Below, piece after piece: positions 10,065 through 55,402 of a stretch of DNA of 64,000 bases. How positions within the stretch are numbered: the first letter of the stretch is position 1; each line of letters opens with the position of its first letter. Below the pieces are notes generated by a model. It made no database searches. It was not told the DNA's origin and was given only the letters and a program-made list of their open reading frames with translations. A program made the translations under genes and the position numbers. The stretch comes from Fibrobacterota bacterium (GTDB taxonomy: Bacteria > Fibrobacterota > Fibrobacteria > UBA5070): contig JAKPQQ010000309.1 of NCBI GenBank assembly GCA_029557215.1, positions 55,927 to 119,926 of the forward strand, in the 5' to 3' direction.

Positions 10065-10289
10065 CAGAGTGCTCCTTGGAAAAGAAAGATGGTGGAGTCT
10101 GAGAACGAGGAAAATGCATACGCGGGAGCGAACTTCCCAGACGGACAGATGCTGCCCGGCCCCACCGCCTGGCCGCAAGCGACAAGGTGCGTCGGAAAAC
10201 AAGTTCAACGCCTCTGTCGGAATTCCCCCCTGTCCGGAAGGGGGTGGGCCAGTCTAGCTTTGAACGACCAACTGCCCTATGAGGTGCAA

Positions 10290-11708: not shown

Positions 11709-11970
11709 CGGGGATGCAAGCGTGCGGTGTTTGTCGGCACATCGGCGCCGATCTGGCTGCATGCTCCTGCCTGGAACGTCTGGAGTGCTCCAACCTGGAC
11801 CATTTTTTTGGAACGTCGTGCAGGAATGACCGAGTGGTGACATATTCCTGACTTCGTACGGGTGCCCAGGGTGTGCCACGTGTTGCCGAATTTTGTAAGG
11901 CGATGCGTGGTTCCACCGTTGCAACCGCGCAAGGGGAGTTCTTATTCTTCGAGGCCACAGTAGGTCAGAT

Positions 11971-12002
11971 CGTGTCTGGCCGGCCGAAGGGTGTCCGGAC
12001 AC
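11971..12002. promoter_or_regulatory. candidate operator: perfect 12-bp palindrome GTGTCCGGACAC plus a related upstream half-site
   Basis: GTGTCCGGACAC at 11991-12002 equals its own reverse complement. GTGTCTGG at 11972-11979 repeats the half-site. Both lie about 100-125 nt upstream of the 12098 start, inside a 389-nt non-coding gap. Confidence 0.3.
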
Positions 12003-12097
12003 GGTGGTGAACCTGCCGAGACCTCCTTGCGACACAGTGCTGGAAGTTTTATCAAGAGATCGATCGCGTTCATGCACGATTCACTCCGGAGAACCAC

Positions 12098-14722: not shown

Positions 14723-14752
14723 TCCATGGTCGCCGAAACAAAGGGAACACGC

Positions 14753-17062
14753 ATGAACACCAAGGCCCTCGCCGTTGCTGCAAGTCTTTGGGTCCCGATG
14801 GTCGCCTCGGCGGCCACCGAAGGAACCGTCACCGATCGTCAGGAAGCGCTCTCCGCGCAGCTGGAAGAAATCCTGGCCAAGACCGGTATTTCCATTGGAG
14901 GAGCATTCCGCGGAGAAGTCGGATCGTCCAAACTGGGCGGCAACTACGCTTACGCCGAACGCCGCGATGACGAGACCATCGGGTTTACCTCGGTGGATTT
15001 CGATCTCCGCGCTCGTCCCAACACGGCCACCACTGCGCGCGCCGTATTCCGGATGCACCTGGATCACGCGAACTTCTTCGGATCCCCCTATTCGCCGCTG
15101 GCAACCCGCTGGCTTTCGATCGACGGCGGGTTTTTCGACATGGTCTACTACCACTTTGGCAACATGCAAGCCAAGTGGTCGCCGCTCATGATTGGCGCCA
15201 CCGAACCCGGGTTCTTGTACACTCCTCGCATTTTCGCTCAGCAGCAGAAGCAGGCGATGGACGAACGTTTCATCGGCGGAGGGGTGCGAAACCTGCAGGG
15301 CATGAACCTGGGGTTGCGCGCGGCGGTTCCGCAACTGGCGATCGACTCGTTCGATGTTTCTGTGCTGGCTGCCAAGCTGCTTAGTGCGGCGACGATCGCG
15401 GATCCCTACTCGATGTTCGTTTCGAGAGCAAATCTTGGCGGTGACGCACTCACGGGCGCTCCGGATTCGCTGGCGAACTTCGATCGCTGGGCGCTGGGAG
15501 CACGTGGAAACGTGACCTTCCTGAAGGGTGTCACCCTGGGAGCCAGTGCGCTGAACATCAAGGATCTTCGTTCCACCTACGGTGCAATGGGGCCGACAAG
15601 TCAGGTGATGAAGTATCGATATTTCCAAGAAGATACGGTGATCGCTGGCGTGCCGAGCTTGAAGAGAGCGATGGATTCTACCGAGGTGGTCGGCGAGACC
15701 CCTCCTGAGGTCCTTCGCGATTCCATCATCCAAAACGGATTGGTCATCGGAGGTGTTGTCGGAATCGATGTGGCAAGACTCCTAGGCAACGACAATCTGA
15801 TTGCCGGGCTCAATGTGGACCTGGGACGTTCTTCTTGGGATCGTTTCCTTGCTCGCGGCATGGATGTCGCCGGAACCAAAGTGGATTCGGTCAGTGCCGC
15901 CGGTGGCAGACTTCGCAGGCGTTTTTGGGTCGACACCGGGTCTTTCAAGCCGATCTACGAAACGGTCAACGGTCTGGCTGTGAACGCGACGCTCGCTGGT
16001 GGCTGGAAGGCCGAAGGCTGGACTGCCAAGGTCCGTGCAGGGTACATCTTGACGGATTCCGCATTCCGTTCCGACCTGGCCCAGAGCCCGGTCTTCTACT
16101 CCTCGCTCGGGCGCGTGTTCAACACCGACCAAGATTCGGTGGGAAGGCTCGGGAAGTACAACACCTTCGATGCGATGTACCATCAGGTCCACCGCTTCGT
16201 CGCGGAAGACAAGAACGAGTACGCCAAGAGCCCCTACGACAAGATCGCCTACTCCAACTACGCCGCGGGCAGCGTGAACCCTGCTCTCACCGATTGGCTG
16301 TTGGGCATCAAGAGCGTCGCCAAGACGAAGGCGAACAACCAGAGGGTCGTCGACTCCATGACGGCGATCCTTGCGAGCGGCTCGGCGACAAGGGCGGATT
16401 CCACCCGCTTGACCACCGAGAAGAAAGCATTGATCACCTCGAACCAGAATCTGTACATGGCGTCCTTGGAAGGAACCGTTTGGGATCGCGACATCCAGCT
16501 GGTTCTACCGGTGGGTGAGGCTTCCGCCAACCGCGTTGGCCCCAAGTTCGGTCTGGATTTCGACCTGATGCAGGGTGGATTGGAAGTCAAGGTCGATGGC
16601 TACATGCTGCAGGAAGCCAAGGGAACCATCCTGGATTCGGCAAATCAGCTTGTCGCCGAGAAGGCCAAGTTCCAGCAGGTCCAGGCAGGACTGCGTACTC
16701 GTATTGACCGGTTCATCACCGGATGGGACAAGCCGATCGAGCTGTCGGGTTCCGTCGGTCTTTCCACTGCCAAGGGTGGTACGGCTCTGAACTACCAGTC
16801 CACCGTGATCAACGCCGGCTTGTACGCCGGGGTCATCAAGCGCCTCGCGGTGCTGGGTGGTTACCAGCTGATCGACGGCAAGGACAAGGCGTTCTTCGTG
16901 GATCGCAAGCAGTCGAACATGGCTGGTGGACTTGAATTCAAGGTCCAGGAAGGCGCTTACCTGTTGGGTATGTACAACCTGGTCAAGACCGAGTTCCCGA
17001 ACGCTCCCGAATACAACTTCGATCAGACCATCTGGTCCACCAAGATTTCGGTCTCGTTCTAA
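14753..17062 (+). CDS. very large outer-membrane beta-barrel protein (769 aa), distant paralogue of the preceding gene
   Basis: ATG at 14753 gives MNTKALAVAASLWVPMVASA. It starts 30 nt after the previous stop. The N-terminal layout is similar: an acidic helix, then GISIGGAFRGEV (compare KPVSFSGEAYLRF). The C-terminus is ...IWSTKISVSF. Confidence 0.65.
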   Translation: MNTKALAVAASLWVPMVASAATEGTVTDRQEALSAQLEEILAKTGISIGGAFRGEVGSSKLGGNYAYAERRDDETIGFTSVDFDLRARPNTATTARAVFRMHLDHANFFGSPYSPLATRWLSIDGGFFDMVYYHFGNMQAKWSPLMIGATEPGFLYTPRIFAQQQKQAMDERFIGGGVRNLQGMNLGLRAAVPQLAIDSFDVSVLAAKLLSAATIADPYSMFVSRANLGGDALTGAPDSLANFDRWALGARGNVTFLKGVTLGASALNIKDLRSTYGAMGPTSQVMKYRYFQEDTVIAGVPSLKRAMDSTEVVGETPPEVLRDSIIQNGLVIGGVVGIDVARLLGNDNLIAGLNVDLGRSSWDRFLARGMDVAGTKVDSVSAAGGRLRRRFWVDTGSFKPIYETVNGLAVNATLAGGWKAEGWTAKVRAGYILTDSAFRSDLAQSPVFYSSLGRVFNTDQDSVGRLGKYNTFDAMYHQVHRFVAEDKNEYAKSPYDKIAYSNYAAGSVNPALTDWLLGIKSVAKTKANNQRVVDSMTAILASGSATRADSTRLTTEKKALITSNQNLYMASLEGTVWDRDIQLVLPVGEASANRVGPKFGLDFDLMQGGLEVKVDGYMLQEAKGTILDSANQLVAEKAKFQQVQAGLRTRIDRFITGWDKPIELSGSVGLSTAKGGTALNYQSTVINAGLYAGVIKRLAVLGGYQLIDGKDKAFFVDRKQSNMAGGLEFKVQEGAYLLGMYNLVKTEFPNAPEYNFDQTIWSTKISVSF

Positions 17063-17089
17063 TCAACCCAGACGCAGGAGAAATACCAA

Positions 17090-20000
17090 ATGCGTAAAAC
17101 CACTTCCTTGGCCGCGATGGCGGCCCTGGTGGGGCTCGGGTTGAGCGGCTGCTTGCAGCCCATCCCGAACCAGTCGGCCGATCTGAATGCCGGCAAAGGT
17201 GTCGCTGGCAAGGTTTCCGGAGTTTCCGACAAATCCTACCCCGTCTACACCTTCTACGACGAAGACTTCCAGCAGGGCGGATTCACGTTCGTCTATGGCG
17301 GATCCACCAAGATGACGCAGCAGGAAGGTGCCGGTGCCGAAGGCTCCGAATACTTCCTGAAAGCCAATCTGGACGTTCGTGACTATTCCGGCGTGGCCGT
17401 CTGCCTCTGGAACATGCAGTTCGACCTGACCCCGTACCTCGCCAACGGCGCCCTGGTGTTCCAGGCGCGTTCCAAGAACGGCGGCGAAAAGGTCGTCGTC
17501 GGTCTGGGCGACGACGAAAAATCAGACGGCTGGAAGGCGGTGGTGCGCAAGCCCCTGGAAGCCTACGGCACCCTCAAGGCGGGCGAGTGGACCACCTTCG
17601 TGATCCCTCTGCGCGACTTCGGCAAGCGTGGCGTGGCGTGGGACGCATCCAAGGGGATCGAACTCCCGATGCCGTTCCAGTGGGACAATGTGCAGGAATT
17701 CCGTCTGCTCACGAACAAGGGCGAAAACCCCGAAGTCGAAGTCGAATTGGACAACATCCAGATCTACGCCGACGCGGTGGGTGAAAGCTCCGAAGCGCCG
17801 ACCGACGACTGGCTCGATCTCGACAAGAACTCCGACGGTCCGACCCCCGAGCAGATGAAGCTCGACGACGAGATCGCCGCGACGTTCTTCGAGAACGACT
17901 ACCCGCAGGGTGGGTTCGCCTACGGCTACGGTGGCAAGACGGTCCAGCGGATCCTGGAGTGCACCACTCCGGGGAACACCGGCGTCTGGGCCAACTATTT
18001 CGACAACGACTGGTCGGGATTGAATCTGTCGGTGGGAGCCGACAAGTACGTGGACGTCACGCCGTTCCGCAAGACCGGCAGCCTCACGTTCTGGATCAAG
18101 GCCGGTCCCAACGCCAAGAAGTTCATGGTCGGCCTGATGGACAACCAGGGCAACGACAAGAAGGTCCAGACCAAGGTCATGGCCGATGGCTACGCCGTCC
18201 TCAAGGAAGGCGAATGGGTCCAGGTGCGCGTGCCCCTCAAGGCGTTCATCGACGATGGCGTTTATTGGGATGCCAAGGCCGCCCGCGAAATCTCGAGCAA
18301 GATGGACTGGTCCAAGATCCAGGAAATCCGCATCTCGATCGGCAAGGACGAAAACAAGCCCGGTGCCGGCAAGCCGGTGATCTTCTACTTGGACCAGATC
18401 CAGCTGACCAAGACGTCCAACGGGATCTTCGATCCGGACGCCTATTGGGACGCGTTCAAGTCCGACGCACCCGACATGCTCGTCACCGACTTCACCAAGT
18501 GGGGCGACAAGTGGGAAACCGGTCACGGATCGTCGGCCGACATCTCGGCGTCGATCGTACCGCTGCCCAAGGGTGCTCCAGCCTTCGTGAAGGGGCAGGC
18601 GCTCAAGATCGACTTCAAGCCGGGCGACTGGTACGATGCGTTCATCAAGATGGAGAACGCGCCTGGAATCCAGGCTGATTGGAGCAAGCACTACGCGGTG
18701 AGCTTCTGGCTCTATACGGAAAAGCCGTACCAGTCCTTGGACTTCACGATCCAGGACAAGGGCAAGGAAATGTTCCTGACCAAGGTCGGCGACGCTCGCG
18801 GTTGGCACCAGGTCCTGGTTCCGTTCCGCAACATCACCAAGTTCCCGTACTACCAGCCGCCCGATGCCGTGCAGAACAACCTGCTCGATCTGGACGGCAT
18901 CTTCCAGTTCGGCCTCAAGCCGGGCGGTGAAGTTCCCGGCACGTTCTACATGGCCAACATCCAGCTCACGAACCTGCGCCAGATCCAGAAGGTCAAGGGG
19001 CCGGCCAGCCTGCCCGCGATCTTCAAGGGCAATGCGGCCAAGACCATCCAGAAGGTTCCTGACATCTACGGCATCAACGTGGGTCTCTGGGCGCCCGAAC
19101 TGATGGACGACGCTTCCGTGGAGCTCCAGAAGCCCATGAACCTGGGTGTCGTGCGTTATCCCGGCGGTCTTCGTTCCGACGAAGAAGACTGGGAGAAGAC
19201 GCTGCGCGACAAGGACTTCCATGTCGACACCGACGAGTTCCTGGATTGGTGCGACAAGGTCAATTGCAAGCCCATGTTCACCGCCAACATCGGCGACGGC
19301 TCGCCCGAGCGCGCCGCCCGGTGGGTGGAATACGTGAACAAGAAGCGCTCCGGCCCGCGTGTCCAGTACTGGGAGCTCGGCAACGAGGTCTACGGCAACT
19401 GGCACAAGTACTACGAGCAGTGGGGCAAGGACGGCGGCGCCGCCTACGCCAAGATGTGCCGCAAGTACATCGAGGCCATGAAAGCCGTGGATCCCGACAT
19501 CAAGATCACCGTGGTCTGGATGCTGGGCGGCAACTGGAACAAGACCACGTTCGAAGAACTGGCCGACATCGTGGATGGCGTGAACGTCCACCACTATGCG
19601 CAGGCCACCGGCTCGGAAAGCGATCAGGGATTGCTCGCGGTGTCGCAGGAATCCGATGTCCTGATGAAGGACGTTCGCCACCAGGTCGACCAGTACGGCG
19701 TGAAGGGCAAGAAGTACGAGATCTGGCTCACGGAGTGGAACTCGGTCGACTTCAACCCCGGTCCGCAGATCCTGCAGCACGTGAACGCCTTGTTCGTCGC
19801 CGACTACCTGGGCCACCTGGCCGAAGCGCCGATCGAGATCGCCAACCTGTGGGCCCTGTACAACGGCCGCGACAAGCGCATGGGCGACTACGGCGTGCTG
19901 GCGGCTTCGTCCGACCCGCAGGGCCTGAACGCCCGTCGTCCCACCTACTGGGCGATGCGCCTGATGGCCACGGCGCTCAACGGCACCTTGCTGGAAGGCA

Positions 20001-20299
20001 AGAGCGACCAGGAGCCTCTGCAGTCCTGGATGTCCAAGCGCGCCGACGGGAAGCTCTCGATCGTGTTCGTGAACAAGAACCCGGACACCGAGTACAAGAC
20101 CACGCTCAAGGTGCCCGGACTCAAGGGCGAGGCGATCGTGGAAGTGCTGACGGCGGAGAATTCGGGCGGCCTCAAGTCGAACGAAGCCACCGGCGAAGTC
20201 CACTCGCAGGAAGGCCCCAAGCCGGAGAAGATGTCCCTGAAGGACGGCTCCGTGATCTCGGTGCCCAAGCACTCGATCGTCACGATCCGGTTCCAGTAA
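17090..20299 (+). CDS. surface lipoprotein: three tandem CBM-like beta-sandwich modules plus a clan GH-A (TIM-barrel) glycoside hydrolase
   Basis: Lipobox MRKTTSLAAMAALVGLGLSGC. Three roughly 190-aa internal repeats share D-F/Y-x-x-GGF-x-Y-G-Y/G-GG ... GEW-x-x-V/F-x-I/V-PL-x-x-F ... W-x-x-V/I-QE-x-R (CBM11/CIA30-like by eye). The catalytic part has VVRYPGG, YWELGNEVYGNW (acid/base) and IWLTEWN (nucleophile). The GH family is not assignable by eye (GH51/GH39/GH30-like). Confidence 0.8.
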   Translation: MRKTTSLAAMAALVGLGLSGCLQPIPNQSADLNAGKGVAGKVSGVSDKSYPVYTFYDEDFQQGGFTFVYGGSTKMTQQEGAGAEGSEYFLKANLDVRDYSGVAVCLWNMQFDLTPYLANGALVFQARSKNGGEKVVVGLGDDEKSDGWKAVVRKPLEAYGTLKAGEWTTFVIPLRDFGKRGVAWDASKGIELPMPFQWDNVQEFRLLTNKGENPEVEVELDNIQIYADAVGESSEAPTDDWLDLDKNSDGPTPEQMKLDDEIAATFFENDYPQGGFAYGYGGKTVQRILECTTPGNTGVWANYFDNDWSGLNLSVGADKYVDVTPFRKTGSLTFWIKAGPNAKKFMVGLMDNQGNDKKVQTKVMADGYAVLKEGEWVQVRVPLKAFIDDGVYWDAKAAREISSKMDWSKIQEIRISIGKDENKPGAGKPVIFYLDQIQLTKTSNGIFDPDAYWDAFKSDAPDMLVTDFTKWGDKWETGHGSSADISASIVPLPKGAPAFVKGQALKIDFKPGDWYDAFIKMENAPGIQADWSKHYAVSFWLYTEKPYQSLDFTIQDKGKEMFLTKVGDARGWHQVLVPFRNITKFPYYQPPDAVQNNLLDLDGIFQFGLKPGGEVPGTFYMANIQLTNLRQIQKVKGPASLPAIFKGNAAKTIQKVPDIYGINVGLWAPELMDDASVELQKPMNLGVVRYPGGLRSDEEDWEKTLRDKDFHVDTDEFLDWCDKVNCKPMFTANIGDGSPERAARWVEYVNKKRSGPRVQYWELGNEVYGNWHKYYEQWGKDGGAAYAKMCRKYIEAMKAVDPDIKITVVWMLGGNWNKTTFEELADIVDGVNVHHYAQATGSESDQGLLAVSQESDVLMKDVRHQVDQYGVKGKKYEIWLTEWNSVDFNPGPQILQHVNALFVADYLGHLAEAPIEIANLWALYNGRDKRMGDYGVLAASSDPQGLNARRPTYWAMRLMATALNGTLLEGKSDQEPLQSWMSKRADGKLSIVFVNKNPDTEYKTTLKVPGLKGEAIVEVLTAENSGGLKSNEATGEVHSQEGPKPEKMSLKDGSVISVPKHSIVTIRFQ

Positions 20300-33336: not shown

Positions 33337-33699
33337 TCAGGTGGCGTCTTTGATCGAAAGCTCGGACAGGTCCTTCTTGAGCAGGGCCGGAATCGACTTC
33401 AAGGAAAGCGGCGTGCTCAGGATGGTGATGCCCATTTCGGTGGCTTTGCGCATTTCCGGTGCCTTCGGCTTTTGGCCGTTGGTGTAGAGGATCGCGACGA
33501 CGTCGGTTTCGCCGCAGACCCGAAGGACCTCGGACGAATCCTGGTTCGTGACCAGCATCACGTTGAACAGGTCGGCCTCGAGGAGGTCGGCGAATTCGGA
33601 ACCGATGTAGGCGCTCTCCACGACCGGAAGCTCTTCTTCCGATCCGACGATGAGTTGCGCGTTCAGGGGACCGCTGAGATGGTCCGTTTCCAGCTGCAT
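33337..33699 (-). CDS. DRTGG-domain protein (stand-alone)
   Basis: The layout LIVGSEE...VMLVTNQDSSEVLRVCGETDVVAILYTNGQKP...ATEMGITILSTP matches the DRTGG domain fold pattern. It ends 20 nt upstream of the barrel gene. Assignment is by eye only. Confidence 0.5.
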   Translation of the reverse strand: MQLETDHLSGPLNAQLIVGSEEELPVVESAYIGSEFADLLEADLFNVMLVTNQDSSEVLRVCGETDVVAILYTNGQKPKAPEMRKATEMGITILSTPLSLKSIPALLKKDLSELSIKDAT

Positions 33700-33922
33700 G
33701 GATGGAACGATAAAACGCCATGGTGGAAACTGGCAATTGGCTTTTCGCGGATTGGCTGGAATTCTCCAGGTGGCCGTCGGGATGATCGAGGGGCAACCGG
33801 GGGTGTGGCCATTGGGGGTAAGCCCCTGTCGCTTCTTGGTTTATGTTGTAGGTTTCACGTTCCCGTGCCGAGATGCCCCGGATAGGTTCTGGTGTTCTGT
33901 TCTCTCGAAAGGGAGTCGATTC

Positions 33923-36391
33923 ATGCACGCGATGGCTTCTTTGGATTCGAGATCGATGCGGGGGCTTGCTTGGTTCGCCGGATGCGCGATCGTCCTGTCG
34001 ACGTTCGGCTCCTGCAAGATCGTCGACGAACCGATCGGTCCGCAGGAGCCGGAATCGCCGAAGGTGTACCTGGCCGGTCTTTCGGGCCTGGGGGCCAAGG
34101 TCGCTCCGCAAGCGGCGACCTGGCGCATGCGAGGCGACACCGCCGAGGTCAGCCTGGTCCGCGACAGGAACGGTGGAATCGTGGCCGTGAAGGCCGTGCT
34201 GGATTCCGCGCCGAGCGACACGGTCCGCGTGGGTCTCTGGCGGGCCGGGGTCCGGTTCGGGCAGGCGATCTACCGCTACGACGGATCGCCGTCGCTGGAG
34301 CGCCTGGGATATCTGGCCGACGGTCTCGCCGAAGGCATCCTCGCCAAGATGGACGATTCGACAACTTCCGGCAGCTTCGAATCGGTCCTGGCCAAGGTCC
34401 TGGTGGAGGGCGATCCCCTGTTGGACGACAACCCCTACCGGGTGCCCGAAGGAGCCGATTCCGGTGCGCTCCAGAAGTTCGTCGCGATCGAGCTCCTGGA
34501 GACGGGCAAGCCGTTCGACGAAGCCGTCGCGGCCGGCGCTCCGCTTCTGGACACCAACGGATTGAAGGATCTGATCCGCCAGCTCGTCGATTCGGGCGTG
34601 GTCGAGGACACCTCGAAGATCTTTCCGCCGACCCCACCTCTTCCACCGCCACCCCCGCCGCAAGATCGGACTCCGCCCTCCGTGCGGATCGTTTCTCCGG
34701 TGAACGACAGCGTCCTGCCTTCCGGATTGGATGCCGTGGACGTGCTCGTGCGGGTGGACGATTCCTCCGGGGTCGATTCGGTCTGGATCGCGGGATTCCC
34801 CGCAAGCCGCCGCGACCGCGATTGGATCCTGGAAGCTCTCGGGTTCCCCGCCACGGAATCCGTCCTGCGCATCGTGGTGCGCGCGAAGGATCCGGCCGGG
34901 AACGAGGCGTCGGAATCCGTCCAGGTGCGCCGCCAGGGCGACACGGCGGGCCCCGAGGTCTCGGTGGTTACGCCGTCGGACGGCGCGAAGCTCGCGCACG
35001 ATTCGGATTCTGTGTCGGTGAAGGTGGTGGCGCAGGACATGTCGGGAGTGGATTCGGTATGGATCGGCGGGGTCCACGCGGTCCTGGCCAACGGTTATTG
35101 GATCGCGAAGGTGTCCGTTCCGATCGGGAAGTCCGGCATCGAGGTCCGCGCCGTGGACGGCGCCGGGAACGTCTCGTCGGCGGACGTTTCGGTGGATCGC
35201 GCAGCGCCGCCGCCTCGCGACAGCCTGGGGCCTTCGATCCGGGTTCTCGCGCCGATCCTCCGCGATCTCCCCTACGACAGCACGGCTGTGACGATTTCCG
35301 TCTTGGTCGTCGACGCCGGAGGACTCGCCTCCTTCCGCATCGGCGATTCGCTCGTGCCGGGTTCCGACAGTGTTTTCGCGCGCAGGGTGGATCTCGCCGC
35401 GGGCACCAACCTCTTCGTGCTGGATGCCCAGGACCGTTCGGGCAACCGTTCGGTCGACTCTCTCGTGCTGGTGCGTTCTCCCGTTCCGCCTCCGGACACC
35501 GCGCCTCCGGTGCTCAAGCGGGGGAAGGGAGCCGTCTCGCGCAGCGTTCCGTTCGATTCGAGCTTCGCGCTGGTGGCATGGAGCGTCTGGGACGACCGGA
35601 AACTGTCCGAGGTCCGGATCGGCGATTCGCTGGTCGTCGGCGACGAAGGCGTGTTCTTCCGGGCGCTTCCGCTTCGCGTGGGTGGGAACGTGGTCGTCGC
35701 CAAGGCCACGGATTCCACGGGAAATTCCGCGTCCGACACCGTCAGGATCGTGCGCGAACAGGACACCAGCCGCCCGGTCGTCGTCGACAGGCCCGATGCC
35801 GAGGTGGTGCTCCCGCAGGGCGTTTCCGGGACGGACCTTTCCTGGAAGATCCACGACAACCTTCCGATGAAGGTGAGCATCGGAGATGTTCCCGTGTCGG
35901 GGGACGATTCCGTCTACTCGAGGTGGATCCTGGTGGTCGGTCCCAGCGTGTCCGTCACGCTCGTGGCGACGGACGAAGCCGGGAACACGACCCGGGAGGT
36001 GGTCGTCGTCCGCCGGTCCGGCGACACGTTGGGGCCGCAACTGCGTCGCAACGCGGGAACCAACGACACGACGGTTTCCGGCGACACGCAGGAATGGAAC
36101 TTCGGTTGGGTCGTGCGCGACAACAGCTCGCTCAAGATCGTCGAGATCTGCGGCATCCCGATCGACATGGAGGCGTCCGATTCGTCGTTCAGCGGCAAGG
36201 CGCAATTGGAGGAAGGCCCGAACGTCTTCTGGATCGAAGCGGAAGACGCGTACGGGAACAGTTCGTCGGACACGATCCGCGTGACGAAGCTCCCTTCTGG
36301 GGTCGGGTCTCCGCGGTCGTCTTCCCCGATCCCCGCCGCCAGGAAGGCTCCGTCCATCGTCGTGTTCGTGACGGGAAAGGAACAGGAATGA
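33923..36391 (+). CDS. lipoprotein with six tandem Ig-like repeats (D-T-x-x-P ... D-x-A/S-GN motif type)
   Basis: ATG at 33923 after GGGAG. Lipobox CAIVLSTFGSC; a proline linker PPTPPLPPPPPPQ; then six roughly 90-aa repeats from about 34664, each starting D(R/T/S)xxP and ending with D-x-(A/S/T)-GN (AKDPAGNEAS, AVDGAGNVSS, AQDRSGNRSV, ATDSTGNSAS, ATDEAGNTTR, AEDAYGNSSS). Confidence 0.7.
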   Translation: MHAMASLDSRSMRGLAWFAGCAIVLSTFGSCKIVDEPIGPQEPESPKVYLAGLSGLGAKVAPQAATWRMRGDTAEVSLVRDRNGGIVAVKAVLDSAPSDTVRVGLWRAGVRFGQAIYRYDGSPSLERLGYLADGLAEGILAKMDDSTTSGSFESVLAKVLVEGDPLLDDNPYRVPEGADSGALQKFVAIELLETGKPFDEAVAAGAPLLDTNGLKDLIRQLVDSGVVEDTSKIFPPTPPLPPPPPPQDRTPPSVRIVSPVNDSVLPSGLDAVDVLVRVDDSSGVDSVWIAGFPASRRDRDWILEALGFPATESVLRIVVRAKDPAGNEASESVQVRRQGDTAGPEVSVVTPSDGAKLAHDSDSVSVKVVAQDMSGVDSVWIGGVHAVLANGYWIAKVSVPIGKSGIEVRAVDGAGNVSSADVSVDRAAPPPRDSLGPSIRVLAPILRDLPYDSTAVTISVLVVDAGGLASFRIGDSLVPGSDSVFARRVDLAAGTNLFVLDAQDRSGNRSVDSLVLVRSPVPPPDTAPPVLKRGKGAVSRSVPFDSSFALVAWSVWDDRKLSEVRIGDSLVVGDEGVFFRALPLRVGGNVVVAKATDSTGNSASDTVRIVREQDTSRPVVVDRPDAEVVLPQGVSGTDLSWKIHDNLPMKVSIGDVPVSGDDSVYSRWILVVGPSVSVTLVATDEAGNTTREVVVVRRSGDTLGPQLRRNAGTNDTTVSGDTQEWNFGWVVRDNSSLKIVEICGIPIDMEASDSSFSGKAQLEEGPNVFWIEAEDAYGNSSSDTIRVTKLPSGVGSPRSSSPIPAARKAPSIVVFVTGKEQE

Positions 36392-45914: not shown

Positions 45915-46105
45915 TTCGGATCACACTCGGAAAGCGGTATTTTTTCTAGCGCGTTGCCGGGCGTCCAGTGGTGGTTCTAGATTGGATCGTCAGCGGAACA
46001 GAAGAAAAATGTCACATGGGCTCTGGAGTTCGGGATCCGTTCCGGCACGAGGGCTTGGGTGTCGCTTCTTGCCGTGCCGCAATTTCACTTCATCCAGGAG
46101 CCCCC

Positions 46106-49100
46106 ATGGTCACCCCAATCCCGTGGACACGTCCCGTCTGGACGGCGTTCGCGATCGGCGCAGTGTCGATCGCCTCCGCCGGCCAGCTGTCCATCGACCT
46201 GCCCAGTCCGCCGATTTCGACCGCAGCCGGATCGCTGTTCCTTGGCGACGACGCCCGCAACGGATTCGTGCACAGGGCCCAGCCCGGCGAACCCCGGTTG
46301 CCGGAACGCACGTTGAGCATCCTGCTTCCGCCGCAGGCGGACCCGTCCACCGTCACCGTGTCGATTTCCGGCACCAAGGAGACCGACGAACCCAACGTCT
46401 TCGACATGTCGCCCGGCTACCCGGTCGCCATCAGCGCGGCTCCCGTCTGGCCCGTGGGCAAGCGCATCCAGGACGGACGCGATCTGGACATCTACGGCAA
46501 GGATGCGTTCCATCCCGCCAAGAATTTTGGCGAGCCCCACGTGCGCCGCTGGGGCGCCTTCCAGATCCTGGAGGTGGCCTACCACCCCTGGAAGTGGAAT
46601 CCTCGTCGCGGCATCCTGCGTCGCGCCACCGGCGGCAAGCTGGTCGTGAAGTACGCCGAGCGCAAGGTGGCCGCGTCTTCGCTATCCAAGACCGAGCTGG
46701 CCGAAGCCAAGGAAGTGTCGAGCCTCGTTTCCAATCCCGAGGTCGTCGCGACCTACACCGGCGGCGTCGCCGTCAGCGCGGCGTCGGAAACCGGCACCTA
46801 TGCGATCGTCACCACCAACGCGATCCGCACGGGCAGTACCAATCTGCTCGCCTTCGCGCGCTCCAAGGTCGCGCGCGGGTTCGCGGTGGAGCTGGCGACC
46901 CAGACCGGGCACTGGAGGCTTTCCAGCGGCGCATGGTCCTGCATCCAGGCCGATTGCGGCGGCGGATGGGGCGGAGGCACCGGTGACGCGGCGGCGGAAG
47001 CCCTGCGCGCCTGGCTGCGGGCCAATTACGTTTCGCGCGACATCCAGTACGCGCTCCTGATCGGCAATCCCAACCCGACATCGGGCGATGTTCCCATGAA
47101 GATGACCTGGCCGCGCAGGGCGGAGGGCGACTATCCCGAGTGCCCCACCGACTACTTCTTCGCGGAACTGTCGGGCATCTGGGACGTGGACGCCAACGGC
47201 TACGCCGGCGAATACCCCGCCGACTACGTCACGGGCGGCATCGACAAGTTCCCCGAGATCGTGGTCGGGCGCATTCCCTACTACGGCTACATGGCCGATC
47301 TCGACAAGATCCTGGCCAAGACCATCGCGTTCGAGAACGCCACCGACATCGCCTGGCGCAAGAACGCGCTGTTGCCCATGGAGCCCAGCGACGCTTCCAC
47401 GCCGGGATACCAGTTGGGCGAACAGATCCGCACCAACTTCCTGATCCCGCGGGAATTCTCCTCCACCCGCATCTACGACGAGGACTACGGAGTCGCTCCG
47501 GAAATCACTCCGTGCAACATCGCCAACGTCCGCAACGCCTGGAGCACCGGCACCTACGGCGTGACCACCTGGTGGACGCACGGTTCGGAAACATCCGCGG
47601 CCGACATCTTCCGCTCCTCCGACGCCTCGTACCTCAACGACGCGTATCCGTCGTTCACCTTCCAGAACAGCTGCACCAACGGTTCGCCCGAATGGTCCAA
47701 CAACCTGGGCTACGCGCTGTTGCGCAACGGCGCGATCGGCACGGTTTCGGCCAGCCGCGTGTCGTGGTACTGGGTCGGCCAGAAATCGTTCACGGGTTCG
47801 CCGCAGTCCAACGCCATGATGGCCTACGCCTACACCGGCGCGCTCACCTACGACTCGCTCGTCGCCGGCAAGGCGCTCAACAAGGTCCGTCGCTCGATGA
47901 TCGTCGACGGCACCTGGTGGGCCATGAACCTCGCCGACTTCAACCTGTATGGCGATCCCTCTGTCGGCCTCTTCACGTCGGCGCCCTCGCGTCCGGTTCC
48001 CACCGGTCTCGCGGCCGTTGCCGGAATCCGTCAGGTATCGCTTTCCTGGGACGTCTTCGCCGGCGCGATCAAGTACTACGTCCTGCGCTCCGTCGCGGGA
48101 GGCGAGCTGGTCGTGGTCGACTCCACGACGACGAATTCCTTCAAGGACGTCGGCTTGACCGACAATACCGCCTACACCTACGCCGTTTCCGCGCGCACTT
48201 CCGTTGAAGTCACCGGGAATTCGTCCACGGTCCGGTCGCTGACCGCTCCCGCCGTCGTGCTCGATCTCACTGCCACCGCAGCCAACCAGCGTGCGATCCT
48301 GAGTTGGAGCGCCTCCCAAGGCGCGACCAGCTACCGGATCTACCGGCTGGAAGTGGAAGGCGATCCGACTCTCGTCGGAACCTCCGAGACGGCAAGCTAC
48401 ACCGTGCTTGGTTTGGAGAACGGCAAGGAATACGGATTCGTCGTGGTGCCGGTGAACGAGAACGGAACCGTCGGTTCGCCGAGCGAGCCGGTCACGGTGA
48501 TTCCCGTGTTCACGCTGGATCGGGTTCAAGGCTTGGCCGCCATCGGCGGCGACGCCGTGGTCGATCTGACCTGGCAGGCCGTGGACGGCGCCGACTCCTA
48601 CGCGGTGTTCCGCGGAACCGGCAAGGGTGTCATGGTCCCTGTCGACACCGTGGCCGCCGTGGCGTTCCACGACCAGGGCCTGGTGAACGGAACGGAATAC
48701 GCCTACGCCGTGGCGGCCATGAAGGCCGACGTGGTCGGGCCGGTTTCCGTCACCGTGCGCGCGACGCCTCTCGTGGCTGTGCCCGCTGTCCCGACCGGGA
48801 TCGCCGCCGTCGGCAAGATCTCGGCCGTGGACGTTTCCTGGAAGGCTTCGGTTCGCGCGACGGGTTACGACGTCTACCGCTCCTCGGGTACGACGGGATA
48901 CGTCAAGGTGGGAACCACCACGGCGCTTTCCTTCAATGACGCCCCGCTGACTCCGTACGTCCGCTACTTCTACAGGATCGCCGCGACCAACGCGACCGGA
49001 TCGAGCGCGCTTTCCGATACGGTCGGTGCGACCGTCCTGGCGCCTGTTCCCGCCGCTCCCGCTTCGGTGGTCGCCACCGCGGGTGATCGCTCCATCGCGG

Positions 49101-51853
49101 TGACCTGGGCCGCGGCCCAGTACGCTTCCACCTACACGGTCAAGACCGCCACCGTGGCGGGTGGACCCTACACGGTGGCCAAGTCGGGGATCTCGGGAAC
49201 TTCCGCGAACCTGACCGGCCTCGTGAACGGCACCACCTACTACGTGGTGGTGAGCGCGACCAACGCCAGCGGCGAAGGCCCCAACTCCGTGGAAGCCAGC
49301 GCCAAGCCGGTGCCTCCGCCCAGCGGCCTGAAGGTCATGTACAAGGTCGGCGACGCGAGCGCGACGGACAACACGATCCGTCCGCTGATCCAGCTGGTGA
49401 ACACCGGCAACGCTGCGATCGCCCTGAACGACGTGACGATCCGCTACTGGTTCACCAACGAGCAGGCCAAGGGCCAGTCGTACTGGTGCGACTGGGCGCA
49501 GATCGGCTGTTCCAACCTGACCGGCACCTACAAGGCGCTGGCCAAGTCGGTCCCGGGTGCCGACGGGTACATGGAGATCGCCTTCAAGACCACCGTGGGA
49601 AGTCTCGCGGCCGGTGCCAATTCCGGCGACATCCAGTCCCGCATCACGCGCTCCGACTGGTCCAACCACAACGAGACCGGCGACTGGTCCTACGACGCGA
49701 CCAAGCTCGCGTTCGCCGACTGGAACCAGATCACCGTCTACAAGGCCGGAGTCCTGGTCTGGGGCAAGGAGCCGGGTGTGGCGACGCCTCCTGCGGTTCC
49801 CACCGCCCTGGCCGCGTTGGCTGGCGTGCACAAGGTGACGCTTTCGTGGGTGGCCGGCGAGAACGACGCGTCCTACAACGTCTATCGCCGCGCCGCCAAC
49901 GGCGCGCGATCCCTCCTGGGATCCGCGACCGCGACGGGCTACGTGGACGACGCCGTCGTCGACGGCACCAGGTACACCTACTGGGTGAGCGGCGTGAACG
50001 GCGCGCTGGAAAGCGCGCTGTCGGATTCCGCCGTGGCGACTCCGGTGGGCGAAGCCCCCGCGAAGGTGACGGGAATTGTCGCCGTCGCGGGCGACGCGGT
50101 GGTGGATCTGTCCTGGAAGGCATCGAGCGGCGCCACCAGCTACAAGATCCTGCGCGGCCCGGAGGGCGGGACCTTGTCCTTGCTGACCACGGTGTCGACG
50201 GTGTCCTACAAGGACGCCACGGCGGCCAACGGCAAGACCTACGCGTACAAGGTGGTGGCCTCCAACGTCTGGGGCGACGCTCCGGCGTCGGACTCGGTGC
50301 TCGCCAGCCCCGAGGCTCCGCTGGTGCCCGCGGTCCCCACCGGACTGGCCGCCTTGGCGGGCGTCCACAAGGTGACCCTGTCGTGGATCGCCGGTGAGAA
50401 CGACGCGTCCTACAACGTGTACCGCAAGACCATCGACGGAGCTCGCACCCTGCTGGGCAAGTCGACCAGGACGAGCTACGTGGACGACGCGGTCGTCGAC
50501 GGCACGCAGTACACCTACTGGGTGAGCGGCGTGAACGGCGCGCTGGAAAGCGCCCTGTCGGATTCCGCCACTGCGATTCCGTCGGGCGAAGCGCCCGCGA
50601 TGGTGACAGGACTTGTTGCCACGGCGGGCGACGCGGTGGTGGATCTGTCGTGGACGGCCTCGACCGGCGCCACAAGCTACAAGATCCTGCGCGGGCTGGA
50701 AGGCGGAACGCTGTCCTTGCTGACCACGATTTCCACGGCATCTTACAAGGATGCTTCGGTGGTCAACGGCACGACCTACACCTACAACGTGGTGGCTTCC
50801 AACGTCTGGGGCGACGCCCCTGCGTCGGACTCCGTGCTCGCGACGCCCGCGGCTCCGCTGGTGCCCGCGGTCCCCACCGAGTTGGTGGCCGTGGCTGGCG
50901 TCCACATGGTGACGCTTTCGTGGGTGCCAGGCGAAAACGATGCGTCGTACAACGTGTATCGCAAGACCATCGACGGTACCCGCACCCTGCTGGCCAATTC
51001 CTTCAGGACGTCGTACGTGGACGACGCTGTGGTCGACGGCACGCGGTACACCTACTGGGTGAGCGGCGTGAACGGCGCGCTGGAAAGCGCCCTGTCGGAT
51101 TCCGCCGTGGCGGCTCCGGTGGGCGAAGCTCCCGCGAAGGTGACGGGACTTGTCGCCACGGCGGGCAACGCGGTGGTGGATCTGTCGTGGACGGCCTCGA
51201 CCGGCGCCACGAGCTACAAGATCCTGCGTGGCGTGGAGGGCGGAACGATGTCCTTGCTGACCACGGTGTCGACTGCGTCGTACAAGGATGTCACGGTGGT
51301 CAACGGCACGACCTACGCGTACAAGGTGGTGGCGTCCAACGTCTGGGGCGACGCCTTGGCGTCGGATTCGGTCCTGGCGAGCCCCAAGGCTCCCGTGGCC
51401 AACATCAAGGCCCAGTACCGCGCCGGCAACGGCCAGGCTTCCACCAACGGTATCCAACCGATCCTCAAGCTGGTGAACACCGGTTCGACCTCGATCCCGC
51501 TTTCCGAGATCACGGTCCGCTACTGGTTCACCAACGACGGCAGGGCTTCGGTGAACTACTGGTGCGACTGGGCGCAGGTCGGCGCGGCCAATCTGACGGG
51601 AACCGTCAAGGCTGTCTCGCCTGCACGCAGCGGCGCCGACCGCTACCTGGAAGTCGCCTTCAAGGCCTCCGCCGGCAGCATCGCCGCGGGCGGAACCTCC
51701 GGCGAGATCCAGAACCGCTTCAGCAAGAGCGACTGGACCAACTTCACCCAGACCAACGACGCTTCGTTCGACGCCACCAAGACGGCCTTCGCCGACTGGA
51801 ACAAGGTGACCGTCTACCGCAACGGCGTCCTCGTGTGGGGCGTCGAGCCGTAA
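46106..51853 (+). CDS. 1915-aa secreted multidomain protein: gingipain-like C25 cysteine peptidase + 5 FN3 + CBM3 + 6 FN3 + CBM3
   Basis: ATG at 46106 after AGGAG, with signal peptide MVTPIPWTRPVWTAFAIGAVSIASA. C25 blocks: YALLIGNPNP...VPM, DYFFAELSG, VVGRIP, catalytic His in WWTHGSETSAA (His codon 47579-47581) and Cys in FQNSCTNG (47672-47674). FN3 modules carry the L-S/T-W ... SY-x-I/V-YR pattern. Two modules align along their length with clostridial CBM3a (IRYWFTNEQ...SYWCDWAQ...GYMEIAF...DWSNHNETGDWSY...VLVWGKEP). Confidence 0.85.
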   Translation: MVTPIPWTRPVWTAFAIGAVSIASAGQLSIDLPSPPISTAAGSLFLGDDARNGFVHRAQPGEPRLPERTLSILLPPQADPSTVTVSISGTKETDEPNVFDMSPGYPVAISAAPVWPVGKRIQDGRDLDIYGKDAFHPAKNFGEPHVRRWGAFQILEVAYHPWKWNPRRGILRRATGGKLVVKYAERKVAASSLSKTELAEAKEVSSLVSNPEVVATYTGGVAVSAASETGTYAIVTTNAIRTGSTNLLAFARSKVARGFAVELATQTGHWRLSSGAWSCIQADCGGGWGGGTGDAAAEALRAWLRANYVSRDIQYALLIGNPNPTSGDVPMKMTWPRRAEGDYPECPTDYFFAELSGIWDVDANGYAGEYPADYVTGGIDKFPEIVVGRIPYYGYMADLDKILAKTIAFENATDIAWRKNALLPMEPSDASTPGYQLGEQIRTNFLIPREFSSTRIYDEDYGVAPEITPCNIANVRNAWSTGTYGVTTWWTHGSETSAADIFRSSDASYLNDAYPSFTFQNSCTNGSPEWSNNLGYALLRNGAIGTVSASRVSWYWVGQKSFTGSPQSNAMMAYAYTGALTYDSLVAGKALNKVRRSMIVDGTWWAMNLADFNLYGDPSVGLFTSAPSRPVPTGLAAVAGIRQVSLSWDVFAGAIKYYVLRSVAGGELVVVDSTTTNSFKDVGLTDNTAYTYAVSARTSVEVTGNSSTVRSLTAPAVVLDLTATAANQRAILSWSASQGATSYRIYRLEVEGDPTLVGTSETASYTVLGLENGKEYGFVVVPVNENGTVGSPSEPVTVIPVFTLDRVQGLAAIGGDAVVDLTWQAVDGADSYAVFRGTGKGVMVPVDTVAAVAFHDQGLVNGTEYAYAVAAMKADVVGPVSVTVRATPLVAVPAVPTGIAAVGKISAVDVSWKASVRATGYDVYRSSGTTGYVKVGTTTALSFNDAPLTPYVRYFYRIAATNATGSSALSDTVGATVLAPVPAAPASVVATAGDRSIAVTWAAAQYASTYTVKTATVAGGPYTVAKSGISGTSANLTGLVNGTTYYVVVSATNASGEGPNSVEASAKPVPPPSGLKVMYKVGDASATDNTIRPLIQLVNTGNAAIALNDVTIRYWFTNEQAKGQSYWCDWAQIGCSNLTGTYKALAKSVPGADGYMEIAFKTTVGSLAAGANSGDIQSRITRSDWSNHNETGDWSYDATKLAFADWNQITVYKAGVLVWGKEPGVATPPAVPTALAALAGVHKVTLSWVAGENDASYNVYRRAANGARSLLGSATATGYVDDAVVDGTRYTYWVSGVNGALESALSDSAVATPVGEAPAKVTGIVAVAGDAVVDLSWKASSGATSYKILRGPEGGTLSLLTTVSTVSYKDATAANGKTYAYKVVASNVWGDAPASDSVLASPEAPLVPAVPTGLAALAGVHKVTLSWIAGENDASYNVYRKTIDGARTLLGKSTRTSYVDDAVVDGTQYTYWVSGVNGALESALSDSATAIPSGEAPAMVTGLVATAGDAVVDLSWTASTGATSYKILRGLEGGTLSLLTTISTASYKDASVVNGTTYTYNVVASNVWGDAPASDSVLATPAAPLVPAVPTELVAVAGVHMVTLSWVPGENDASYNVYRKTIDGTRTLLANSFRTSYVDDAVVDGTRYTYWVSGVNGALESALSDSAVAAPVGEAPAKVTGLVATAGNAVVDLSWTASTGATSYKILRGVEGGTMSLLTTVSTASYKDVTVVNGTTYAYKVVASNVWGDALASDSVLASPKAPVANIKAQYRAGNGQASTNGIQPILKLVNTGSTSIPLSEITVRYWFTNDGRASVNYWCDWAQVGAANLTGTVKAVSPARSGADRYLEVAFKASAGSIAAGGTSGEIQNRFSKSDWTNFTQTNDASFDATKTAFADWNKVTVYRNGVLVWGVEP
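49790..51400 (+). repeat. three tandem in-frame copies of a 537-bp (179-aa, two-FN3) unit
   Basis: Units start at 49790, 50327 and 50864, each beginning CC(T/C)GCGGT(T/C)CCCACC (PAVPT). The copies are highly similar and include a stretch (TACACCTACTGGGTGAGCGGCGTGAACGGCGCGCTGGAAAGCGC.CTGTCGGATTCCGCC) that is nearly identical in all three. Confidence 0.9.
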
Positions 51854-52966: not shown

Positions 52967-54904
<1,938 letters not shown>

Positions 54905-54908
<4 letters not shown>

Positions 54909-55402
54909 CCCTGGAAGTTCGTGAATTGGAGATCGACCGACCAGTCGCCCTTGCGCAGCATCTGCATCGCGTCCTGGAGATCGTCCTTGGACTTGCCCGT
55001 CACGCGCAGGTGGTCGCCCAGGATGGACGCCTGCACCTTGAGCTGCTTGGCCTCCTTGATGGCCGCGGCGATCTTCTTGGCGTCGGGCTGCGGGATGCCC
55101 GCCTTGAGGCTGGCTTCCTGGCGCACGGTCATGTGTCCGGCCGCCTGCAGCTTGCCCCACTCGAGTCCCTTGGTGCTCACGCCGCGCTTGATCAGCTTGG
55201 TGTCCAGGACGTCCTTGAGCTGTTCCATCTTGGGTTCGTCGTCGGCGGTGAGCTTGAGCTTGTCGCCGTCGAACTCGATCTCGCACTTGCTTCCCTTGAA
55301 GTCGAACCGCGAAGAAACCTCGCGTTTCGCCTGGTCCACCGCGTTGCGGACTTCCTGGGGGTCGATCTTGCTGACGATGTCGAAGGAGCAGTCTTTGGCC
55401 AT
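54905..55402 (-). CDS. yajQ: YajQ-family nucleotide (cyclic-di-GMP)-binding protein
   Basis: MAKDCSFDIVSKIDPQEVRNAVDQAKREVSSRFDFKGS... matches YajQ/UPF0234 end to end. 165 aa. Confidence 0.9.

Follow-up and report, generated by a model that had tools for sequence, protein, structure and literature searches.

What would bring a gingipain-type peptidase together with modules that bind crystalline cellulose? The question is raised by a single gene in a 64,000-nucleotide stretch of DNA (hereafter the window; GenBank assembly GCA_029557215.1, contig JAKPQQ010000309.1, positions 55,927 to 119,926 of the forward strand) from an uncultured Fibrobacterota bacterium of high guanine + cytosine (GC) content and cellulolytic type. 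The gene encodes a protein of 1915 amino acids (aa) in which a signal peptide, a gingipain-type pro-domain and a peptidase domain of family C25 are followed in this order by five fibronectin type III (FN3) modules, a family 3 carbohydrate-binding module (CBM3), six further FN3 modules and a second CBM3. The product is considered here to be, probably though far from certainly, a secreted, latent clan-CD cysteine endopeptidase that would be tethered to crystalline cellulose by its own CBM3 modules. An earlier annotation made from the letters alone (the sequence-only reading) had proposed such a cellulose-anchored protease, and the intact catalytic dyad, the eleven FN3 modules, the two CBM3 modules with their strip residues and the lack of a tail for the type IX secretion system (T9SS) support the proposal at the level of sequence. 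The features of the gene are as follows.

46106..51853, plus strand: whole gene, a single open reading frame (ORF) of 1915 codons and the stop codon
46096..46100, plus strand: Shine-Dalgarno-like AGGAG, read from the sequence, with a 5-nt spacer to the ATG at 46106
46106..46183, plus strand: putative Sec-type signal peptide, aa 1-26, MVTPIPWTRPVWTAFAIGAVSIASAG, read from the sequence
46184..46795, plus strand: gingipain-type N-terminal pro-domain, aa 27-230, from a homologue profile and Foldseek
46796..47971, plus strand: Peptidase C25 catalytic domain, aa 231-622, from Pfam, AlphaFold2 (AF2) and Foldseek
47579..47581, plus strand: codon of the catalytic His492, by profile alignment to RgpB His211 (1cvr)
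47672..47674, plus strand: codon of the catalytic Cys523, by profile alignment to RgpB Cys244 (1cvr)
47981..49315, plus strand: FN3 modules 1-5, aa 626-1070, 24-36% identical to one another
49319..49774, plus strand: CBM3 module 1, aa 1072-1223, matching Pfam CBM_3 and PDB entries 6d5b (E=1.9e-41), 2l8a, 3zqw, 4jo5 and 1nbc
49781..51391, plus strand: FN3 modules 6-11, aa 1226-1762, three tandem copies of a 537-bp unit of two FN3
51395..51850, plus strand: CBM3 module 2, aa 1764-1915, matching PDB entries 3zqw (E=8.4e-45), 6d5b, 4jo5 and 1nbc

The peptidase and its pro-domain

A scan of the first 665 aa alone gives a PF01364 (Peptidase_C25) match at aa 232-620 that covers profile positions 1-372 of 374 (E=3.8e-33; 115.7 bits, with the cut-off at 23). 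The same domain is not listed in a Pfam hmmscan of the full 1915-aa protein, and a single-sequence phmmer search of aa 1-665 against the PDB gave chance matches only, so a homologue profile was needed. An AF2 model of the N-terminal part (predicted local distance difference test (pLDDT) score 87, predicted template modelling score 0.86) finds RgpB (1cvr, E=2.4e-16; 4ief_B/D) and Kgp (4rbm) as its best Foldseek matches, followed by separase and caspases; model and matches together support a caspase-like alpha/beta fold for the catalytic domain. The catalytic residues lie in WWTHGSETSAA (aa 488-498) and FQNSCTNG (aa 519-526), and profile alignment places WWT-H492-GSETSA opposite YTG-H211-GSETAW of RgpB and FQNS-C523-TNG opposite FDVA-C244-VNG. 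All 33 homologues share His492 and Gly493, and at least 90% conservation is seen for Cys523, which is invariant in a second homologue alignment. The sequence-only reading had seen C25 blocks with an intact dyad here, and both the Pfam match of the N-terminal domain and the register of the two residues with RgpB in a proper alignment bear this out. Sequence, dyad, fold and pro-domain all mark the window protein as a true member of family C25.

Compared with the clade consensus ...VVTExTWGGGTGD, the catalytic domain is longer by some 20 aa in the window protein and its orthologue, owing to an insertion (GHWRLSSGAWSCIQADCGGGW; window 46907-46969, aa 268-288). It contains two cysteines, lies just before the WGGGTGD motif and is modelled by AF2 as a beta-hairpin.

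The pro-domain is recognized by a profile of the 33 homologues, which matches the pro-domains of Kgp (5mun, E=1.2e-10) and RgpB (4ief_A, E=5.8e-6), and by Foldseek, in which the AF2 model recovers the pro-domain chains 4ief A/C/E/G and 5mun. The Pfam Propeptide_C25 match is weak in the window protein (E=0.009) and clear in relatives. In front of the pro-domain, the signal peptide has a hydrophobic core and an A-S-A motif and no lipobox cysteine; its cleavage site was deduced from the sequence rather than predicted by a tool, and AF2 gives a pLDDT below 50 at aa 1-22. Because a signal peptide precedes a gingipain-type inhibitory pro-domain, the enzyme is predicted to be a secreted zymogen.

The natural comparison is with the gingipains of Porphyromonas gingivalis (MEROPS C25, clan CD), namely RgpB, RgpA and Kgp. 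They share with the window protein the signal peptide, the inhibitory pro-domain, the caspase-like catalytic domain, the His/Cys dyad within shared HGSET and xCxNG motifs and a beta-sandwich module after the catalytic domain; moreover, RgpA and Kgp carry C-terminal adhesin modules that place the enzyme on its target, and the window protein likewise carries an adhesin region of its own. However, the gingipain structures are only 15-18% identical to it and Asp163, the S1 residue of RgpB, is not matched. The adhesins of RgpA and Kgp are haemagglutinin/adhesin domains, whereas those of the window protein are FN3 and CBM3, the latter a cellulose module. In addition, gingipains are T9SS cargo in an animal pathogen, while the window protein has no T9SS C-terminal domain and belongs to a free-living Fibrobacterota bacterium of cellulolytic type.

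The gene itself appears sound. The stop-to-stop frame 45968..51853 on the plus strand is open from end to end, and the GC content at third codon positions (GC3), 0.86, is typical for real genes of this window of 65% GC. The ATG at 46106, the start given in the sequence-only reading, was retained since it follows AGGAG at 5 nt and coincides with the orthologue N-terminus MVTPLPW.... A collinear orthologue of 1910 aa from the JGI data (P0184, on contigs of up to 581 kb) is 83% identical over the whole length with 5 gaps. Furthermore, a contig of a Fibrobacterota metagenome-assembled genome (MAG) from the Flint River, L001, encodes an orthologue at 88% identity with the same signal peptide, pro-domain, C25 domain and five FN3 modules, and ends within the first CBM3. 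Ratios of nonsynonymous to synonymous substitution (dN/dS, Nei-Gojobori) against L001 are 0.10 (0.098) for C25, 0.17 for the pro-domain, 0.26 for FN3 and 0.23 for CBM3; purifying selection acts on all parts and most strongly on the catalytic domain. Low values in all parts speak against pseudogene status, a chimeric origin or a dead enzyme. An assembly chimera or a repeat collapse was also rejected in view of the architecture, which is common to two independent assemblies, of the collinearity of the 1910-aa orthologue and of repeat copies that are only 82-89% identical in DNA.

The FN3 chains and the cellulose-binding modules

PF00942 (CBM3) matches the protein in two stretches with E=2e-52. 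Both modules match solved CBM3a/b structures end to end over about 150 aa, with E=1e-31 to 1e-45, namely those of CipA (1nbc, 4jo5), ScaA of A. cellulolyticus (3zqw), Caldicellulosiruptor (6d5b) and the endoglucanase of B. subtilis (2l8a). They are about 50% identical to these cellulose-binding modules and 54% identical to each other, and they end in VLVWGKEP and VLVWGVEP, as in the VLVWG.EP shared by the solved structures. The solved CBM3a/b modules sit on glycoside hydrolases or scaffoldins, whereas those of the window protein sit on a peptidase, and in Fibrobacterota. Strip and anchor residues were compared in an alignment to CipA 4jo5, in the residue numbering of 1nbc; the planar strip of CipA CBM3a consists of Asp56, His57, Tyr67, Arg112 and Trp118. 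In both modules three of the five strip residues are identical and one is replaced conservatively (His57 by Trp, as in ScaA 3zqw), the equivalents of Asp56, Arg112, Trp118, Gln110, Asn16 and Ser12 all being kept in the alignment.

The eleven FN3 modules were recovered both with a hidden Markov model (HMM) derived from the repeats and in a tblastn search that used a single repeat as the query. A profile of the eleven matches structures of titin, fibronectin, RPTP, CbhA-Fn3 and ChiA1-Fn3 down to E=1e-32, and Trp25, Tyr34 and Tyr67 are invariant among them. Only FN3-2 and FN3-5, two of ten single modules tested, pass the Pfam fn3 cut-off, and consequently the FN3 assignment rests on the ensemble. 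The 537-bp copies of the second chain are direct repeats, 82-89% identical in DNA and 76-86% in protein; Tandem Repeats Finder reported no repeat, as the 537-bp unit exceeds its period limit of 500 bp.

The stop codon stands directly after the second CBM3, with no sorting or anchor domain behind it. Models of T9SS sorting domains (type A TIGR04183, type B and type C) gave no match to the full protein, and TIGR04183 does match another member of the clade (P0027), so the model is able to detect such a tail in this clade. By recognized criteria, as far as its sequence tells, the window protein is not a T9SS cargo. What the sequence-only reading had said of this half, that is, eleven FN3 modules, two CBM3a-like modules aligning over their whole length down to VLVWG(K/V)EP, and a chain that ends in a complete CBM3 without a T9SS-type tail, is thus borne out by the searches.

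Relatives and genomic surroundings

An exhaustive phmmer search with aa 1-665 against 1.84 billion cluster representatives gave 2496 matches at E<=1e-3 and 855 at E<=1e-30, most of them long proteins (up to 2678 aa) with 37-50% identity. The clade has 475 loci in species-representative genomes and spans many phyla; its hosts include Fibrobacterota (Chitinispirillaceae among them), Verrucomicrobiota, Armatimonadota, Planctomycetota, Desulfobacterota (including the cultured Desulfonema magnum), Bacteroidales and Methanothrix. C25 peptidases had been described in the sequence-only reading as a family of the FCB group that usually carries a T9SS domain, and this does not hold for the present clade, which spans many phyla and mostly has no recognizable T9SS domain; one member, P0027 mentioned above, has a type-A tail.

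The C-terminal modules of the clade are various. Among the 38 nearest representatives, FN3 occurs in 12, CBM3 in 9, CBM56 in 2, CBM5/12 in 2 and malectin in 2, together with Ig-like and PKD modules; the next 41 have discoidin (4), CBM6/35 (2), Ig-like and beta-helix modules, and CBM3 is not among the 25 families listed for them. A purpose-built CBM3 HMM run over 183 retrieved clade proteins found a clear CBM3 in eight, two of which are fragments of orthologues of the window gene, and among 79 related loci taken from species-representative genomes only two, both in Fibrobacterota, have a CBM3 downstream of C25. Altogether, some nine clusters at 50% identity contain the combination, nearly all of them from Fibrobacterota. 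The fusion had seemed unfamiliar on first reading: it is rare, it is unannotated and no description of C25 fused to CBM3, or to any CBM, was found in the open-access literature, but it is not unique. C25 + FN3 + CBM3 is a rare, uncharacterized variant concentrated in one lineage of uncultured Fibrobacterota.

Among the relatives, HQF56474.1 (Fibrobacteria), MBK8802497.1, MCL6588886.1 and MEK7393611.1 belong to the same clade with 40-58% identity in the pro-domain and C25, several having the order C25-FN3-CBM3. Unlike the window protein, they have one CBM3 and 0-4 FN3, the exception being MEK7393611.1 with two CBM3 and nine FN3 in the recovered part. Known layouts are pro-C25-FN3-CBM3-FN3x3-tail (MBK8802497.1, a Fibrobacteres MAG), pro-C25-FN3-CBM3-tail (another relative), a minimal pro-C25-CBM3 (MCL6588886.1, a Bacillota MAG) and C25-FN3x5-CBM3-FN3x4-CBM3 (MEK7393611.1, a partial Fibrobacterota protein). 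Between the two CBM3 there are four FN3 modules in the last protein and six in the window protein, a variation that would be expected of spacers. In public records such proteins are named fibronectin type III domain-containing, cellulose binding domain-containing, hypothetical or even "cellulose 1,4-beta-cellobiosidase", and several have no PF01364 in their precomputed domain lists; C25 domains of long repetitive proteins are probably under-annotated.

A tail of about 85-110 aa ends three C25-CBM3 relatives from other Fibrobacterota, P0045 (aa ~1144-1228), P0003 (aa ~1004-1088) and P0046 (aa ~875-987), with C-termini that are alike (...YSWASMYWW, ...YPWASFYWW, ...YRLSWWASN). In some of the relatives it is about 85 aa long and ends in ...WAS.YWW, unlike the window protein, which has no such tail. 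NCBIfam sorting-domain models did not match the tails of P0045, P0046 and P0003. The tail could be a lineage-specific secretion or anchoring signal.

The window contains further genes that bear on the way of life of the host and on its secretion, as follows.

7596-10253, minus strand: GH94 cellobiose/cellodextrin phosphorylase (Pfam E=4.7e-146)
17063-20299, plus strand: 1078-aa protein with CBM30 (E=7e-20) and CBM11 (E=5e-15)
33611-36391, plus strand: 927-aa protein with Glucodextranase domain B (E=1.8e-19) and weak OmpL47-type beta-barrel matches (Pfam/NCBIfam)
54000-55286, minus strand: PorQ/PorV-family-like ORF by sub-threshold NCBIfam matches, with the real start probably near 54908, 2.2 kb downstream of the C25 gene

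The GH94 enzyme is 89-97% identical to those of five Fibrobacterota/Fibrobacteria MAGs and at most 80% identical to everything else, which places the host in Fibrobacterota. It is still 75-80% identical to proteins of Spirochaetales, Sorangium and various Proteobacteria, an unusually high conservation across phyla. In the 1078-aa protein an ArfA/GH51-like stretch at aa 686-893 (E=2.4e-14) is far below the cut-off; the protein is reminiscent of the CBM30/CBM11/GH51 cellulases that Fibrobacter succinogenes possesses. A glycogen phosphorylase, a GH57 enzyme and two chemoreceptors are further products of the window, and the 927-aa protein, judged from its domains, is probably another surface or secreted glycan-related protein.

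Three long stop-to-stop frames near these genes, 12011-14722 (plus strand), 14723-17062 (plus strand) and 10254-12080 (minus strand), of 904, 780 and 609 codons respectively, have no Pfam or NCBIfam match. Their GC3 is below that of their neighbours, 0.73 for both plus-strand frames and 0.60 for 10254-12080. The two plus-strand frames lie directly upstream of the CBM30 + CBM11 gene and may form a unit with it.

Immediately upstream of the C25 gene, and on its strand, lie fmt, rsmB and an EVE-domain gene; downstream, in convergent orientation, there are a weakly glycosyltransferase-like ORF and RmlB; the order EVE-rsmB-C25 is kept in L001. Further downstream, the ORF at 54000-55286 has a signal-peptide-like N-terminus, matches T9SS PorQ with E=4.6e-13 and 48.9 bits (cut-off 220) and PorV/PorQ with 36 bits (cut-off 90), and has no sequence match in the PDB. 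Its sequence hints that the organism may have T9SS-type outer-membrane components. Since a T9SS is reported for Fibrobacterota (PMC11285876) and such an ORF is nearby, the missing sorting domain on the protease is all the more worthy of attention.

The cellulose-anchored protease and its alternatives

The proposed course of events is as follows. The protein would be exported by the Sec pathway and then released from the cell, and its pro-domain would be removed as in gingipains. The two CBM3a/b-type modules would then attach to the flat faces of crystalline cellulose, with the FN3 chains serving as spacers that set the first CBM3 five modules apart from the protease and the second six modules apart from the first, so that the catalytic head might sweep the fibre surface around its anchors. 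There it would cleave proteins on or between the cellulose microfibrils, such as structural proteins of the wall or the adsorbed enzymes of other organisms, and cellulose would be uncovered, peptides would be gained by a cellulose-living organism, or both. For environmental C25 peptidases, a nutritional role in which they attack cell-wall proteins has been assumed (PMC4454575). The sequence-only reading had named clearance of wall protein, attack on rival cellulases and processing of the organism's own enzymes as candidate roles, and any of these may apply. The identity of the domains, the intact dyad, the pro-domain, the kept CBM3 strip residues, the missing cell anchor and T9SS tail, the purifying selection and the type of host are observed, whereas passage through the outer membrane, activation, binding to cellulose, substrates and physiological role are inferred in this scheme. 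The idea of an anchored protease is strengthened by the cellulolytic-type Fibrobacterota host and by the related C25 proteins, which repeatedly carry other polysaccharide-binding modules.

Cellulosomes offer a precedent. Dockerin-bearing peptidases are known from Clostridia and Ruminococcus, for example an S8 double-dockerin protease of C. thermocellum and a papain-like NlpC/P60-type module of R. flavefaciens, and for these peptidases, whose function is unsettled, the proposed roles are to process or turn over enzymes, to recycle nitrogen and to serve in competition (PMC12484212; PMC7480376). In both cases a protease is brought to the cellulose surface, or would be, and the same roles come into question. 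However, cellulosomal peptidases reach cellulose indirectly, by dockerin-cohesin binding to a scaffoldin that bears the CBM3, whereas the window protein has CBM3 on its own polypeptide, and the peptidase families differ, S8 or papain-like on the one hand and C25 on the other.

Several points weigh against the tethered endopeptidase. The host is diderm, and the way in which a 1915-aa protein without a recognized T9SS domain crosses the outer membrane is not accounted for. The S1 Asp163 of RgpB falls opposite Tyr434 in a poorly aligned loop of the HMM alignment, so specificity could be narrow; the inhibitory loop of the pro-domain (RgpB Arg126-type) also falls in a poorly aligned region. In the CBM3 modules, the loop that bears Tyr67 of the CBM3a planar strip in CipA is deleted, as in the CBM3b modules of the 3zqw, 6d5b and 2l8a alignments. 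Finally, an operon link to cellulases was considered and rejected, as the flanking genes fmt, rsmB, EVE and RmlB are housekeeping genes and place the C25 gene outside any polysaccharide-utilization cluster.

A different use of the same parts, which is unlikely but survives best among the alternatives, is a self-processing polyprotein: the C25 domain would mainly cut its own chain, as RgpA and Kgp do when they split into catalytic and adhesin parts. The released FN3-CBM3 fragments would coat or bind cellulose in the manner of an adhesin or a scaffold, and foreign proteins would hardly be degraded. The layout parallels that of RgpA and Kgp, in which a pro-domain and a catalytic domain precede C-terminal adhesin modules, and the long repetitive FN3/CBM3 region has exposed linkers rich in Pro and Ala. 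However, no cleavage motifs are identifiable, the minimal pro-C25-CBM3 form (P0142) has nothing to release, and the many unrelated C-terminal modules of the relatives fit targeting better than release of cargo. Self-processing is, in any case, compatible with a protease tethered to cellulose.

It is less likely still that the CBM3 modules have a target other than plant cellulose, for instance chitin, an exopolysaccharide or bacterial cellulose made in a biofilm by the organism or by a neighbour, or the glycans of glycoproteins, which would make the enzyme a biofilm- or chitin-associated protease. Some members of CBM3 also bind chitin, relatives in the clade carry the chitin-type CBM5/12 and the beta-1,3-glucan-type CBM56, and relatives come from rivers and wastewater, which are rich in biofilms. 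Against this, the nearest solved CBM3 modules (6d5b, 2l8a, 3zqw and 1nbc) are from cellulosomal scaffoldins and glycoside hydrolases or endoglucanases, the strip residues are kept in the window protein, and the host has the GH94 and CBM30/CBM11 genes.

The remaining two alternatives are very improbable: the pro-domain, a similarity to RgpB and Kgp that exceeds the similarity to PorU, the conserved dyad, the low dN/dS and the missing cell anchor speak against them. A PorU-like transpeptidase (sortase), which would cleave specific secreted proteins and religate them, e.g., onto a surface polymer at the interface of cellulose and cell, is suggested by PorU itself, a member of family C25 that the profile matches weakly (6za2, E=1.6e-5), and by the sub-threshold PorQ/PorV-like gene 2.2 kb downstream, but the sequence is closer to RgpB and Kgp, the significant fold matches do not include PorU, the protein has an inhibitory pro-domain of gingipain type and no C-terminal domain, and the NCBIfam T9SS_sortase model scores far below its cut-off in relatives (17-27 bits against 420). 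As for a plain cellulose-binding protein or adhesin whose inactive C25 domain serves as a binding or structural module, the third catalytic residue and the S1 determinant are indeed not mappable with confidence, but such a pseudo-enzyme can hardly be reconciled with a His and a Cys conserved across the clade, a catalytic domain that is the most constrained part of the protein, an inhibitory pro-domain that is sensible only for an active protease, or the absence of the cell anchor that an adhesin would need.

The cellulose-tethered endopeptidase may also be seen in a wider frame. The fusions of CBM3, CBM56, CBM5/12, CBM6/35, malectin and discoidin in the C25 clade suggest a general pattern of polysaccharide-targeted proteases. 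On a bolder view, which is tentative and rather doubtful, the window protein would be the most elaborate member of an unrecognized class, namely C25 proteases fused to CBMs by polysaccharide degraders, stripping or destroying surface proteins, including the cellulases of competitors. The CBM would then be matched to the matrix: CBM3 to cellulose, CBM5/12 to chitin, CBM56 to beta-1,3-glucan and CBM6/35 to hemicellulose.

For the annotation of such genes the lesson is that Pfam scans of the full-length protein omit C25, and the architecture is thereby hidden in public records. With regard to the families concerned, CBM3 is shown to occur in uncultured Fibrobacterota, and gingipain-type enzymes, best known as virulence factors of an oral pathogen, make up a large family in the environment whose targeting modules are interchangeable. 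A protease that attaches to cellulose unaided might also be of use in biomass pretreatment, textiles and detergents. Because protease and cellulose anchor are on one polypeptide, the protein is a self-contained test object for the role of proteolysis at the fibre surface, where faster breakdown of cellulose, supply of nitrogen and disabling of rival enzymes are the candidate roles. If the class outlined above is real, proteolysis would be an integral and overlooked step, or a weapon, in the turnover of cellulose by non-cellulosomal bacteria.

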